A stretch of 64,000 bases of DNA, from assembly GCA_964518305.1 (NCBI GenBank), contig CAZFDK010000004.1:42986-106985 (forward strand), given 5' to 3'. A program made the position numbers and the translations under genes. The notes beneath the pieces are model-generated. The model did not search any database. It was not told the origin of the DNA and was given only the letters and a program-made list of their open reading frames with translations. Of the stretch, positions 41,603 through 48,737 are shown piece after piece (the first letter of the stretch is position 1; the number at the start of each line of letters is the position of its first letter). Source of the stretch: an uncultured Gemmatimonadota bacterium (GTDB lineage Bacteria; Gemmatimonadota; Gemmatimonadetes; Palauibacterales; Palauibacteraceae).

Positions 41603-41620
41603 TAGGCGGAGATCCCCCAC
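41586..41620. repeat. Perfect 13-bp inverted repeat GTGGGGGATCTCC-N9-GGAGATCCCCCAC
   Basis: Exact reverse-complement arms, formed by two back-to-back boxes. Confidence 0.85.
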
Positions 41621-41694
41621 ATCGCTGTGCTTGCTCCTCCCACGAGCACTTCGACGTCCTCCCGACAGACGTCCTCGCTTCCGCGAGGCACGTT
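41604..41694 (+). promoter_or_regulatory. Phased-box promoter of the N-ATPase operon
   Basis: Box ends CCCACA (41621), CCCACG (41644), CCCGAC (41666); CACGTT at 41689-94; gaps 44 and 22 nt. Confidence 0.6.
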
Positions 41695-41802
41695 TGAAGG
41701 TGCCGTACCGAGAGCCGGGACGGGGGGAGCGATCATCCGTTCCCGGCGCAGCGCGGTCCACTGCCCTCCTCCGACCGGCCGTCCGCTATCCGAGGTGACA
41801 CC

Positions 41803-42030
41803 ATGTACACGCTGGTCCGAGACGAAGACGGAGCAACGGAAGTTCACATCCACGGCTCCACGTCCGGCCTGTCGCCGGAGGAGGCCCGCCGCCTCCTCGT
41901 CGGTCTCAGCCCCGTGCTCGCGAAGTTGCGCCGGCGCGCCTACGACCTTCCCCCGGCTGGGCCCGATCCCTTCCCGAGATCCCGCGCGGAGCGCGACGCG
42001 GGGCGGAAACCGCTGGGCATCGAGTCGTAG
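41803..42030 (+). CDS. Hypothetical 75-aa protein heading the N-ATPase operon
   Basis: GAGGTG SD 5 nt upstream of ATG, GC-typical codons, stop 15 nt before atpD. Confidence 0.6.
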   Translation: MYTLVRDEDGATEVHIHGSTSGLSPEEARRLLVGLSPVLAKLRRRAYDLPPAGPDPFPRSRAERDAGRKPLGIES

Positions 42031-42045
42031 CGATGGAGGCCGGAG

Positions 42046-45503: not shown

Positions 45504-45506
45504 TCC

Positions 45507-46286
45507 GTGGAGATCGACTGGTTCACGTTCGGGGCGCAGGTCCTGAACTTCGTGATCCTCGTCTTCCTCCTGCGCCGGTTCCTGTACGAGCCCGTGACGG
45601 AGGCCATCGATCGCCGGGAGGAGCGGATCCGCCGCCGGCAGGAGGAGGCCGAGCGTCGGCGCCGCGAGGCCCGGCGGGAGGCCGAGTCGTACCGGGAGGA
45701 GCGGCGCGAGCTGGAGGCGGCTCGCGAGGAGAAGCTCCGCGAGGCCGAGCGGGAGGCCGAGCGCCTCCGTGAGAGGCTGGAGGAGGAGGCCCGGGAGGAG
45801 GCCGACGAATCCCGGGACCGGTGGCGGCGCGCCGTGGAGCGGGAGCGCGAGAGCCTCCTGGAGGAGCTGCAGGAGCGGATCGCGGACCACGCCCTGGCCA
45901 CCACCCGGAGTCTCCTGCAGCAGCTGGCCGGGCGCGACCTGGAGAGGGAGGCCGTGCGGACGTTCGCCCGCCGGCTGTCCGGGCTGGACGAGGAGGAGGC
46001 GACGAGCTTCGTCGAGGCCGTTCGGGAGTCGGACGGCGAAGCGGGAGTGTACACCCGTTTCGAGCTGGACGCCGACTCCCGGGAAGTGCTCGGGGAGGCG
46101 GTGCAGGAGCGACTGGGGCCGGGACTCGACCTGGACTTCGACACCTCGGACGGGATCGTGCTGGGGGTGGAGCTTCGGGCGGGGGACCGAAAGATCGCGT
46201 GGAGCGCCGGCGATCGTCTCGACCTTGCCGAGCGGGAGGTCTCCGACCTCATCGAAGCCGACAGCCGGAGCCAGGAAGACACGTGA
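45507..46286 (+). CDS. atpF: N-ATPase b subunit (long, delta-like C-terminus)
   Basis: [20 protein letters not shown], coiled coil, C-terminal [14 protein letters not shown]. Confidence 0.9.
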
Positions 46287-47794
46287 CCTCGCTCGGCGAG
46301 GCCGTTCGGCGTCCGCTGGCGGCGATGGAGCGGGTCGTCACGGAGGCGGGACGCCGGCCGCGAGTACGCGAGTACGGAGTGGTCCGCTCCGTCGACTCGG
46401 ACGTCGTTCGCGTATCGGGACTCTCCGGGGCCGGCCGCGACGAGCTGCTCCGTTTTCCGGGCGGTGAGGTGGGCCTGGCCTTCGACCTCGACCCGGGCGG
46501 GATCGGGGTCGTGCTCCTGGATTCGGCCCGGGGGGTCGAGGCCGGACAGGAAGTCCGCCGCACCGGGAGGCAGTTCGACGTGCCGGTGGGGGAGGAGCTC
46601 CTGGGACGAGTGGTGGACGGGGGCGGGCGTCCCCTGGACGACCGGGGCCCGGTGGGTGCCGCGCACCGACTCCCCGTGCATCGGGAAGCGCCTCCGATCA
46701 TGAGCCGTGCCCCGGTGTCGGAGCCGCTGCAAACCGGCGTGAAGGCCGTGGACGCCCTGGTACCCGTGGGGCGCGGGCAGCGGGAGCTCGTGGTGGGTGA
46801 CCGACAGACCGGCAAGACCACGCTGGCGGTGGACACGATCGTGAACCAGGCGACGTCCGGCGTGCCGTGCGTCTACTGCGCCCTGGGACAGCGGACTGCC
46901 GCGGTGGCTCGGGTCCTGGAGCACCTGCGGCAGTCGGGGGCCATGGAGAACAGCGTCGTCGTGGTGGCCGGCGGAGACGACCCCCCGGCGCTCCAGTACG
47001 TGGCCCCCTATGCGGCGACCTCCATGGCCGAGCACTTCACCGAGAACGGCCGTGACGTCCTCGTCGTCTACGACGACCTGACCCGTCACGCACGCGCTTA
47101 CCGCGAGCTGTCCCTCCTGCTTCGGCGACCGCCGGCCCGTGAGGCGTTTCCGGGCGACGTGTTCCACGTCCAAGCCCGACTCCTGGAACGCGCCACCCGG
47201 CTCAGGGAGGAGGAGGGCGGCGGGTCCCTGACCGCGCTGCCCGTGGTGGAGACGGAAGCGCAGAACCTGTCGGCGTACATCCCCACGAACCTGATCTCCA
47301 TCACCGACGGCCAGATCTACCTGTCCCCGGAGCTCTTCCGCCGGGGCATGCTGCCGGCGGTGGACGTGGAGCGCTCGGTCTCGCGGGTGGGGGGACGGGC
47401 GCAGCTCCCGGCCTATCGCGAGGTCGTGGCCGACCTGAAGCTGGCGTACTCGCAGTTCCTGGAGCTGGAAGTCTTCTCGCGCTTCTCAACCCAGCTGGAC
47501 GAGGAGACGCGGGCGAAGCTGGAGAGGGGCAGGCGGGTGCGGGAGGTGCTCAAGCAGCGCGAGGGCGAGCCGGTCCCGCCCGCCGAGCAGGTGGCGGTCC
47601 TGCTGGCGGCCACGGCCGGCGCGCTGGACGAGGTCCCGCTGGAGGAGATCGGGGCCGCCGAGCGTCGCGTGCGCTCGGCGGTCCGCGACAAACTGCCCGA
47701 TCTGTGCGAGCGCATCGAGGAGGGGGTGGAGCTGGCCGAGAACGACGTCGATCGCCTGCTGGAGGCCGTCCGGACGGCGGCGGCCCGGGGCTGA
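46283..47794 (+). CDS. atpA: N-ATPase F1 alpha subunit
   Basis: [46 protein letters not shown]. Confidence 0.95.
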
Positions 47795-47804
47795 AGGGAC
47801 CGCC

Positions 47805-48737
47805 ATGGAGAGGAAGGAGCGGCTTCGGAAGCGGGTGGACGCGGCGGAGAGTCTGCATTCGATCGCCGGAGCCATGAAGGCCCTGGCCTCGGTCCGGATC
47901 CGGGGGTTCCGGGACGCCGTCGCCTCCCTGGAGGAGTATCGCGCCAGCCTGGAGCTCGGGTTCCAGGTGGCGCTACGGGACGTCCCCGGCGGGCGGCGGG
48001 CGGGACGCGCCGCGGCGGGCGCGCTCGTCGAGGAGCAGGAGGGGAGGCCGGCAGGCGTCGTGATCTTCGGGTCGGACCTGGGGCTCGTCGGTCAGTTCAA
48101 CGAGCGGATCGCCTCGTTCGCCGCCGCCCGCCTCCGGGAACGGGACGATCCGGTGCGGGTGGCAGCGGTGGGCAGGCGGCTGGTGCCCCATCTGCGGAGC
48201 CACGGCGTGGAGCCGGCGACCGTCCTGCCGGTGGCCGCCGGCTCCTCCCGCCTTACGGGGCTCGCCCGTGAGCTCCTGCTCACCGTCGAGCGGTGGCGAG
48301 GCGAGGGAGCGGAGCGGGTGGCGGTCACGCACCACGCCTACCGCCGTGGAACCTCCTACGGGCCCCGCTGGCAGCTTCTCCTCCCCCTGGACCCGGCCTG
48401 GCTGGCCGAGCTCGTGGACCGGCCGTGGCCCACGCGGGTGATTCCCACGTACCGGGCTCCCTGGGAAACGCTGTTCGGCTTCCTCGTCCGCGAGCATCTC
48501 AACGTCTCCATGGTCCGGGCGGCGGCGGAGTCCCAGGCCTCCGAGCATGCGGGCCGGCTGGCCGCCATGGAGCGGGCCGAGAGCCGGATCGAGGAGCACG
48601 TGGGGCAGCTGCGGCAGGAGCTCAGGGACCGGCGACAGGAGGCGATCACCGAGGAGTTGATGGACCTGATGACCGGATACCGGGCGGCCGAGGAGGGAGA
48701 GGAGCGGCGCAGGGGCCGTCGCGAAGGCGAGCCGTGA
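47805..48737 (+). CDS. atpG: N-ATPase gamma subunit
   Basis: AMKALA, GSDLGLVGQFN, SEHAGRLAAM, RQEAITEEL. Confidence 0.92.
   Translation: MERKERLRKRVDAAESLHSIAGAMKALASVRIRGFRDAVASLEEYRASLELGFQVALRDVPGGRRAGRAAAGALVEEQEGRPAGVVIFGSDLGLVGQFNERIASFAAARLRERDDPVRVAAVGRRLVPHLRSHGVEPATVLPVAAGSSRLTGLARELLLTVERWRGEGAERVAVTHHAYRRGTSYGPRWQLLLPLDPAWLAELVDRPWPTRVIPTYRAPWETLFGFLVREHLNVSMVRAAAESQASEHAGRLAAMERAESRIEEHVGQLRQELRDRRQEAITEELMDLMTGYRAAEEGEERRRGRREGEP

Follow-up and report, generated by a model that had tools for sequence, protein, structure and literature searches.

Predicted wiring of a Na+-type N-ATPase operon into a tandem-box regulon of an uncultured Gemmatimonadota bacterium

When does a bacterium that already carries a housekeeping F-type ATPase make use of a second, accessory enzyme of the N-type? 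The proposals made so far include salt tolerance through Na+ export, proton pumping and standby ATP synthesis when the membrane potential is low, and to our knowledge no promoter, regulator or regulatory element has been described for N-ATPases. The question is raised here by a stretch of 64,000 nucleotides (nt) of DNA (hereafter the window; contig C4:42986-106985, G+C content 70%) of the 3.09-Mb, 177-contig assembly G000 (GCA_964518305.1) from an uncultured Gemmatimonadota bacterium. A complete nine-gene N-ATPase operon (42046-48737, + strand) was found on the window, preceded by a series of phased boxes. The explanation that best accounts for the findings as a whole, and which is considered probable, is that this intact Na+-type N-ATPase operon is under the control of a NarL-type regulon responding to the limitation of oxygen or energy. 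The enzyme itself is ordinary, with the new element being its predicted wiring, together with that of a V/A-type ATPase, into a regulon that is DosR-like but distinct. A predicted shared promoter of this kind gives a testable clue to when an N-ATPase is used.

A tandem-box promoter upstream of the atp operon

A de novo motif search of the intergenic DNA of the window (with an intergenic background, trimmed starts and a limited number of sites) identified a palindromic element with the 17-bp consensus GTGGGGA-N3-TCCCCAC. Genome-wide, with genes outside the window called using an iterated codon log-odds caller, three exact copies and eight copies with one mismatch were found, and eight scrambled palindromes of equal composition yielded 0-1 copies. 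Six of the eleven copies were intergenic, in a genome that is 88% coding. The palindrome was also enriched in the genus, with copy numbers of 11, 9 and 5, and in certain genera of the same family, with the sister family at background level. Other candidates and readings were dropped, these being an enriched 8-mer, GTTCGTGT, which lay mostly in coding DNA, a CRP/FNR-like motif, since the GTG...CAC distance is 3 bp longer than that of CRP sites, and a CsoR-like motif, since the order GGGG...CCCC is the reverse of that in CsoR operators.

Same-strand pairs of the half-site cTCCCsACg (at least 6.5 bits each) were then counted for spacings of 10-60 nt. In intergenic DNA, 16 pairs were found at 23 nt and 25 at 24 nt, with approximately 5 (range 1-14) at other spacings; outside the window, the counts were 10 and 20, respectively. 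Coding DNA displayed no peak at 23-24 nt, codon periodicity alone being visible. This histogram is the decisive evidence for a tandem architecture. Almost all of the tandem pairs (39 of 41) face a downstream gene on the same strand. Most distal boxes are good palindromes; the proximal boxes are more uniform in sequence than these and read approximately CTCCCGACAGA. In most of the promoters a -10-like yAnnyT (A2, T6) begins approximately 22 nt past the proximal half-site.

These three elements were combined into a composite model, in which the proximal box lies 23-24 nt from the distal one and the offset of the -10-like element is fixed. Training used 29 other promoters and left out the atp region, and the model was run on both strands with a threshold of 18 bits. 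Fifty-two matches were identified genome-wide (47 intergenic and 5 coding), and because just five fell in coding DNA, approximately one false match would be expected in all of the intergenic DNA. The atp promoter ranked 28th of the 52, with 26.1 bits and with most of the higher ranks being occupied by training members, and its proximal box had the highest score of any site in the genome (19.1 bits). Approximately 45 other promoters in the genome share its architecture. The elements identified upstream of the operon were the following:

41604..41620, + strand: box c, AGGCGGAGATCCCCCAC, distal box of the atp promoter (half-site 8.9 bits; right half CCCACATCGC invariant in four aligned sequences)
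41627..41643, + strand: box d, GTGCTTGCTCCTCCCAC, middle and weakest box (half-site 6.8 bits, 23 nt past box c; CTCCCACGA invariant in the four sequences)
41650..41666, + strand: box e, TTCGACGTCCTCCCGAC(AGA), proximal box at the -35 position (19.1 bits; covered by a 21-nt block invariant in the four sequences)
41689..41694, + strand: -10-like CACGTT, 22 nt past the proximal box, at the modal offset of the -10-like element of the regulon
41586..41602, - strand: box b, GTGGGGGATCTCCCCCG, distal box of a minus-strand promoter (invariant in the four sequences)
41562..41578, - strand: box a, CGGGGGCGATTCCCGAT (read on the - strand), proximal box of the minus-strand promoter (half-site pair 41593/41569, spacing 24)
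41534..41539, - strand: -10-like TATCTT of the minus-strand promoter, 22 nt past the half-site of box a, mirroring the geometry of the plus side (TAGCTT in the congener G001)
40345..41442, - strand: divergent Na+/Pi-cotransporter-family membrane protein of 365 amino acids (aa) (PF02690, E 6.6e-17), served by boxes a and b
41803..42030, + strand: open reading frame (ORF) of 75 aa between the promoter and atpD (two full-length homologues with 85-89% identity, on L101 and L102)

The 17-mer boxes c, d and e end in CCCCCAC (41620), CTCCCAC (41643) and TCCCGAC (41666), a phasing of exactly 23 nt, and boxes b and c together form a 35-bp inverted repeat. A start site for the atp transcript is predicted near 41700-41702. 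Boxes and promoter lie approximately 345-380 nt upstream of atpD, with the boxes 137 nt upstream of the 75-aa ORF. No canonical sigma-70 promoter was found in 41400-42100, both ends of the operon yielded neither sigma-70-like nor terminator-like sites, and a search of the 41400-42100 leader against Rfam returned nothing credible. Three phased boxes and CACGTT had been pointed out at this position in a first-pass annotation of the window; the 23-nt spacing, the modal -10 offset and the composite match of 26.1 bits bear this out. The strength of the atp boxes lies in their promoter-proximal half-sites, phasing and conservation.

This conservation was examined in a four-way alignment with the congener G001 and two short metagenomic contigs from closer relatives, L101 and L102. 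All four sequences agreed at box b, in the right half of both box c and box d, and over the 21-nt block covering box e, and no indels were present between boxes c, d and e. The -10-like element read CACGTT, CACCTT, CACGTT and CAGGTT in the four sequences, with A2 and the final TT being kept. Compared to G001, the box region was 73% identical and the flanking non-coding DNA 34-53%. The first-pass annotation had proposed searching for the box upstream of N-ATPase operons in related genomes, and this search found the composite promoter in all three relatives (22.6-23.7 bits). No match was found upstream of atpD in 79 distant N-ATPase loci, as would be expected for a lineage-specific regulator.

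The 75-aa ORF is situated in a segment of approximately 250 nt that is missing from G001, where the promoter lies approximately 135 nt upstream of atpD with no ORF between. Synonymous to non-synonymous changes between the ORF and its two homologues numbered 8:8 and 7:11, selection on it looks only weakly purifying, and no Pfam or NCBIfam match was obtained. In this sublineage it is a possible first cistron of the operon. It may encode a small protein with an accessory or inhibitory role, or be no more than a conserved leader. As for the divergent Na+/Pi-family gene, it was found in G000 and G001 only among 25 relatives, and was rejected as a conserved partner of N-ATPases given its absence beside the 79 distant operons.

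The N-ATPase operon and a co-regulated V/A-type ATPase

The ORF map and family models showed the operon to be complete, with the order atpD-C-Q-R-B-E-F-A-G and with genes that overlap or lie no more than 20 nt apart:

42046..43455, + strand: atpD, beta subunit (TIGR03305 744 bits, versus 614 for canonical atpD)
43452..43853, + strand: atpC, epsilon subunit (TIGR03166 137 bits, above cut-off)
43840..44163, + strand: atpQ (gene 1) (TIGR02230 124.6 bits; ATPase_gene1 PF09527 43.6 bits)
44160..44492, + strand: atpR (urf2), hallmark N-ATPase membrane protein (PF12966 59.8 bits, cut-off 26; TIGR03165 49.5 bits, slightly below the cut-off of 55.5)
44497..45198, + strand: atpB, a subunit (TIGR03306 293.7 bits; stator Arg in ...LAVRLFGN...)
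45219..45503 (alternative start 45228), + strand: atpE, c subunit (TIGR03322 140 bits, above cut-off; PALGE and ESTAIY)
45507..46286, + strand: atpF, long b subunit of 259 aa (TIGR03321 226.6 bits, above cut-off; weak OSCP PF00213 match at residues 165-239)
46283..47794, + strand: atpA, alpha subunit (TIGR03324 739 bits)
47805..48737, + strand: atpG, gamma subunit (TIGR03323 228.9 bits)

For all nine subunits the best NCBIfam model was that of the 'alternate F1F0' type, with four of the scores (beta, alpha, a and gamma) slightly below the strict 'exception' cut-offs of NCBI. P-loops, the stator Arg of subunit a and a DELSxED-like loop of beta are readable in the translations. A Pfam and NCBIfam search of the operon ORFs identified no delta (OSCP) gene, the C-terminus of AtpF being weakly delta-like. 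A convergent pncB (Pfam NAPRTase) lies 8 nt past the end of the operon. As a canonical F-type operon with a delta gene is located on contig C68 of the same genome, the N-ATPase is a second copy. The gene order without delta, which the first-pass annotation had taken as the mark of an accessory N-ATPase, was confirmed by the ORF map, NCBIfam and Pfam, and its interpretation by the presence of AtpR, AtpQ and the separate operon on C68. Every hallmark of N-ATPases that was looked for was found, and the operon is that of an ordinary N-type (alternate F1Fo) ATPase and is intact.

Among 41 related genomes, an N-type beta subunit was identified in G000 and its congener G001 only. The nearest relative of AtpD was that of G001 (L001), with 86% identity, followed by matches of at most 68% that were spread over many phyla, and the nearest N-ATPase outside of the genus was from Salinivenus. 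The best named matches of the housekeeping AtpD had 76-81% identity and were from two metagenome-assembled genomes of Gemmatimonadota. From this distribution, the N-ATPase operon appears to have been laterally acquired.

The c subunit reads ...PALGE...MIESTAIY... and possesses the full ligand set of Na+-binding c-rings of the I. tartaricus/F. nucleatum type (Gln or Glu in helix 1, here Glu; Glu-Ser-Thr-x-x-Tyr in helix 2). It was aligned to the c subunits 3ZK1, 1YCE and 4BEM, and positions E32, E65, S66, T67 and Y70 of 3ZK1, from Fusobacterium nucleatum, were all matched. The identification of PALGE and ESTAIY as the Na+-binding set, also made in the first pass, agrees with this alignment, the two-carboxylate site of the F. 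nucleatum ring being one that binds Na+ (PMC3692424, PDB 3ZK1).

A complete V/A-type ATPase operon was identified on the minus strand at C5:40235-48641 (subunits I, K, E, C, F, A, B and D), extending to C5:40235-48877 with a G/H-like subunit. Its promoter consists of three boxes, GTGGGAGGTTTCCCCAC ... CTTCTCCCGCC ... ATCTCCCGACAGT, followed by TAGCTT. A promoter of this same type is also present before the orthologous V/A operon in G001 (L184) and in another genus (G021, L183). The housekeeping F-type operon on C68 has no boxes and is not among the composite matches. Because the V/A operon has boxes and the F-type operon has none, the regulon appears to add two accessory rotary ATPases, of which the N-type would be the later, laterally acquired recruit. 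The K subunit of the V/A-type enzyme is a single hairpin of 75 aa (WAQSKIG ... IPETM). Its best alignment is with NtpK of Enterococcus hirae, which is of the Na+ type, but the K subunit carries Met at the position of the NtpK ligand Gln65.

Regulon content, candidate regulator and competing explanations

Box promoters were found before stress-type genes (Hsp20/alpha-crystallin, tandem universal stress proteins (USPs), baeRF family-3, dodecin, CBS-pair proteins and DUF2267-THUMP), transporter genes (Kup, a CitMHS/Na-sulfate family carrier with TrkA_C, and a divergent P-type ATPase/acetate kinase pair), energy genes (NiFe hydrogenase small subunit, a multihaem cytochrome, the alpha subunit of a 2-oxoacid:ferredoxin oxidoreductase, and aconitase) and signalling genes (a REC-only protein, a HAMP-HisKA_3 kinase, an Rrf2 regulator and a REC+GerE response regulator). 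The atp promoter type is thereby shared with small heat-shock, universal-stress, ribosome-hibernation-like, hydrogenase, fermentation and V/A-type ATPase genes. The suggestion from the first pass that the N-ATPase is wired together with stress genes holds at the level of sequence, the atp promoter having the architecture of a genome-wide regulon with DosR-like content. Approximately 21 of the 52 composite matches lie on the 110-kb contig C4, which justifies the impression of a regulon 'island'.

Further observations were made among these genes and their neighbours. The Hsp20/alpha-crystallin gene of the window (18039-18482) has two strong adjacent boxes upstream (17868-17906; 18.4 and 17.5 bits) and corresponds to hspX, the classic target of DosR. 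On the same strand as a box-controlled tandem-USP gene, and behind it, lies a 2885-aa ORF (C4:22250-30907) that by eye resembles giant cyclic beta-1,2-glucan synthase/phosphorylase proteins. Upstream of the transporter/atp pair, window positions 35132-40266 contain genes for a PolX-type DNA polymerase (HHH_8, pol beta thumb and PHP), an erythromycin-esterase-family protein and a ribonucleotide reductase large subunit, the reductase being missing at this position in G001.

Among the signalling genes, the REC+GerE response regulator (C6:5004-5681) has a perfect box 165 nt upstream, in a composite promoter of 34.7 bits. It belongs to the NarL family, with its best solved relatives including NarL, VraR and, in fifth place, DevR, which is no closer than NarL or VraR. 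A paralogue (C4:10630-11286) adjoins a tandem-USP gene. From the logic of autoregulation, the NarL-type C6:5004-5681 or its paralogue is the candidate for the regulator that binds the boxes. The regulator gene is located directly 3' of nosZ-nosD-nosF-nosY (identified by eye from the translations) and 5' of a radical-SAM gene, within C6:2-5681, and this neighbourhood suggests a link of the regulon to denitrification or low-oxygen respiration.

Only two HisKA_3 kinases were identified in the genome, with PAS or HAMP input. One of these, C4:19718-20743, has a cytoplasmic PAS-HisKA_3-HATPase arrangement and is situated amid regulon promoters. The haem-PAS domains of FixL and DosP are the best solved relatives of its PAS domain (E ~1e-14), and the proximal His aligns. 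This kinase is a candidate sensor for the regulon. A REC-only gene is divergent from it (C4:19085-20743), with regulon promoters on both sides.

The following mechanism is proposed. Dimers of a NarL/FixJ-family regulator would bind cooperatively to boxes lying two turns apart on the same side of the helix, and the phosphorylated regulator would recruit RNA polymerase to a promoter that lacks a -35 element, in the manner of DosR. The signal may be the limitation of oxygen or energy, as judged from the FixL-like PAS kinase and from the content of the regulon (Hsp20, USPs, baeRF, NiFe hydrogenase, 2-oxoacid:ferredoxin oxidoreductase, acetate kinase and ion transporters). Under that condition, the N-ATPase and the V/A-type ATPase would join an uninduced housekeeping F-ATPase. 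Most likely the N-ATPase would burn ATP in order to expel Na+, so that the membrane potential is kept up and the co-regulated Na+-family transporters have a Na+ gradient to draw on, with ATP perhaps being supplied by the co-regulated ferredoxin oxidoreductase/acetate kinase route. Alternatively, it might act as a standby synthase with a high ion-to-ATP ratio at low potential.

A number of points weigh against this explanation. Triple phased arrays alone were only approximately 2-fold more frequent in intergenic than in coding DNA, and the atp region did not stand out when half-site scores were summed per 120 nt, the discriminating measures being the pair-spacing histogram and the composite model alone. 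With a symmetric 21-nt position weight matrix, which scores them as full palindromes, the atp boxes reach just 4-7 bits, and the middle one is weak. The promoter of G000 lies approximately 345 nt from atpD, with an uncharacterised ORF between. The regulator was assigned by autoregulation logic only, and the Rrf2 gene too has a perfect box upstream. The PAS domain of the candidate kinase has no equivalent of FixL Arg220. In addition, N-ATPase mRNAs of Synechococcus PCC 7002 did not rise with salt (PMC3468840), and H+ is bound by the N-type c17 ring of Burkholderia pseudomallei (PMC5376962), the sole N-type ring to have been examined in biochemical work, although that ring has ETMxxY in place of ESTxxY.

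Several of these points feed an alternative that is possible, if somewhat unlikely, in which the wiring is real and the signal is instead stationary-phase/energy, salt/osmotic or nitric oxide/redox stress, or the boxes are bound by Rrf2 or another factor. A different signal would suit the missing Arg220 equivalent, the ion transporters of the regulon (Kup, the CitMHS/Na-sulfate carrier with TrkA_C, the Na/Pi carrier and the P-type ATPase), a proteome that looks acidic and the affinity of the N-ATPase to that of Salinivenus, and a different binder would suit the perfect box upstream of Rrf2. Rrf2 proteins are mostly repressors, however, and boxes upstream of a -10 element without a -35 element fit an activator. 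The hydrogenase, 2-oxoacid:ferredoxin oxidoreductase, acetate kinase, multihaem cytochromes, Hsp20, USPs and baeRF match low-oxygen regulons (DosR; lxa, PMC3721108). Also against this alternative, N-ATPase mRNA of PCC 7002 was unresponsive to salt (PMC3468840), but the Nitrospira marina protein rose at low O2 (PMC8115632).

It is also unlikely that the enzyme is H+-coupled in spite of its Na+-type motif, and so serves in proton pumping or in ATP synthesis at low proton-motive force. The H+-binding ring of B. pseudomallei lends some support to this, as does the ability of Na+-type enzymes to move H+ at low Na+ (PMC2881411). Because the B. pseudomallei ring has ETMxxY and the present one has ESTAIY, along with the helix-1 Glu and all five of the F. 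nucleatum ligand positions, Na+ coupling is the better prediction.

Improbable, too, is that the elements are the operators of a repressor, or that the proximal CTCCCGACAGA is the -35 element of an alternative sigma factor. The proximal half-site does lie exactly at the -35 position, and it is the more uniform of the boxes. Against this, the distal boxes are full 17-bp palindromes typical of dimeric regulators, and the arrays reach approximately -90. The -10-like element is sigma-70-like (A2, T6) and without the motif typical of extracytoplasmic function (ECF) sigma factors, and CCGACA lies 21 nt from the -10, farther than a sigma-70 -35 element would.

It is least probable that the boxes control only the divergent Na/Pi transporter or only the 75-aa ORF, with atp transcribed independently, for example constitutively from nearer to atpD: the boxes are 380 nt from atpD and approximately 120 nt from where the transporter gene starts, boxes a and b face the transporter and the leader contains a conserved ORF, but boxes c, d and e are on the plus strand with their own -10-like element at the canonical offset and an independent promoter score, the ORF stops 15 nt before the atpD start with no terminator-like or sigma-70-like site found, the G001 promoter has no ORF between it and atpD, and the 9-nt insertion found in L101 falls between boxes b and c and not inside c-d-e, so that the atp and transporter promoters are separate modules.

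Control of the operon by a NarL-type, oxygen- or energy-limitation regulon is therefore retained as the preferred explanation. A more far-reaching and tentative version is that a single circuit, comprising an O2- or energy-sensing FixL-like PAS kinase and a NarL-type regulator that binds phased arrays of GTGGGGA-N3-TCCCCAC, may re-equip the membrane in this family when energy is limiting by inducing the old V/A-type and the recently acquired N-type ATPase, with the F-ATPase left outside, and that the N-ATPase may have been captured by a pre-existing regulon after lateral transfer. If true, N-ATPases would have their first defined regulatory circuit, and the low-membrane-potential standby idea would gain direct support. 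The result would also illustrate how a laterally acquired operon is plugged into the regulon of its host.

Comparison with known systems

The N-ATPase family was defined by Dibrova, Galperin & Mulkidjanian in 2010 (PMC2881411). The present operon shares with it the gene order atpDCQRBEFAG, AtpR and AtpQ, the long b subunit, the absence of a delta gene, status as a second copy in addition to a canonical F-ATPase, and a distribution that is patchy and marked by lateral transfer. No structural differences from the family were identified, with the 75-aa ORF before atpD and the predicted promoter being extra here. The c-ring ligands E32, E65, S66, T67 and Y70 are shared with the F-ATP synthase of F. 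nucleatum, whose Na+-type ring belongs to a main, Na+-driven synthase encoded by a canonical F-type operon, whereas the enzyme described here is an accessory N-type one known from its sequence. With the N-ATPase of B. pseudomallei, the operon type and the second Glu, in helix 1, are shared, and ETMxxY differs from the ESTAIY found here.

N-ATPases have been proposed to be standby enzymes at low membrane potential (bioRxiv 10.64898/2026.10.01.756066). In proteomics of N. marina Nb-295, N-ATPase subunits and hydrogenase were found to rise at low O2 (PMC8115632). The significance of the present prediction is limited by this earlier observation of low-O2 induction, and by the organism being uncultured. 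The N. marina result is proteomic and from another phylum, with no promoter or regulator identified, whereas a cis-element and a regulator are predicted here.

The low-oxygen-activated lxa locus of Burkholderia cenocepacia (PMC3721108) is a genomic island with a single shared upstream motif, and its genes likewise encode USPs, alpha-crystallin, a ribonucleotide reductase, a cation ATPase and regulators. That motif is FNR/Anr-like (TGA-N6-TCA), unlike the palindrome described here. No rotary ATPase is mentioned for the locus in the available portion of that report.

The closest parallel in outline is that with DosR/DevR of Mycobacterium tuberculosis, with which the regulon shares tandem palindromic boxes approximately two helical turns apart, the proximal one being at -35. 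The candidate regulator here is of the NarL family and may be autoregulated, as its perfect box suggests. A class II-like ribonucleotide reductase is also found nearby, as in DosR/DevR. The Dev box has the 20-bp consensus TTSGGGACTWWAGTCCCSAA; compared to this, the 17-bp box described here has a similar half-site and an inner spacer that is 3 bp shorter. The kinases DosS and DosT have haem-GAF domains, and that regulon is induced by hypoxia, NO or CO; the candidate kinase here has a FixL-like PAS domain. Gene content is shared as regards Hsp20/alpha-crystallin, USPs, baeRF (Rv2629-like) and a P-type ATPase (overlap list in PMC3721108), to which the regulon described here adds two rotary ATPases and a hydrogenase. 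The analogy would thus be a partial one, which fails for box length and kinase input and appears to hold for the regulator family, the tandem boxes and the gene content.

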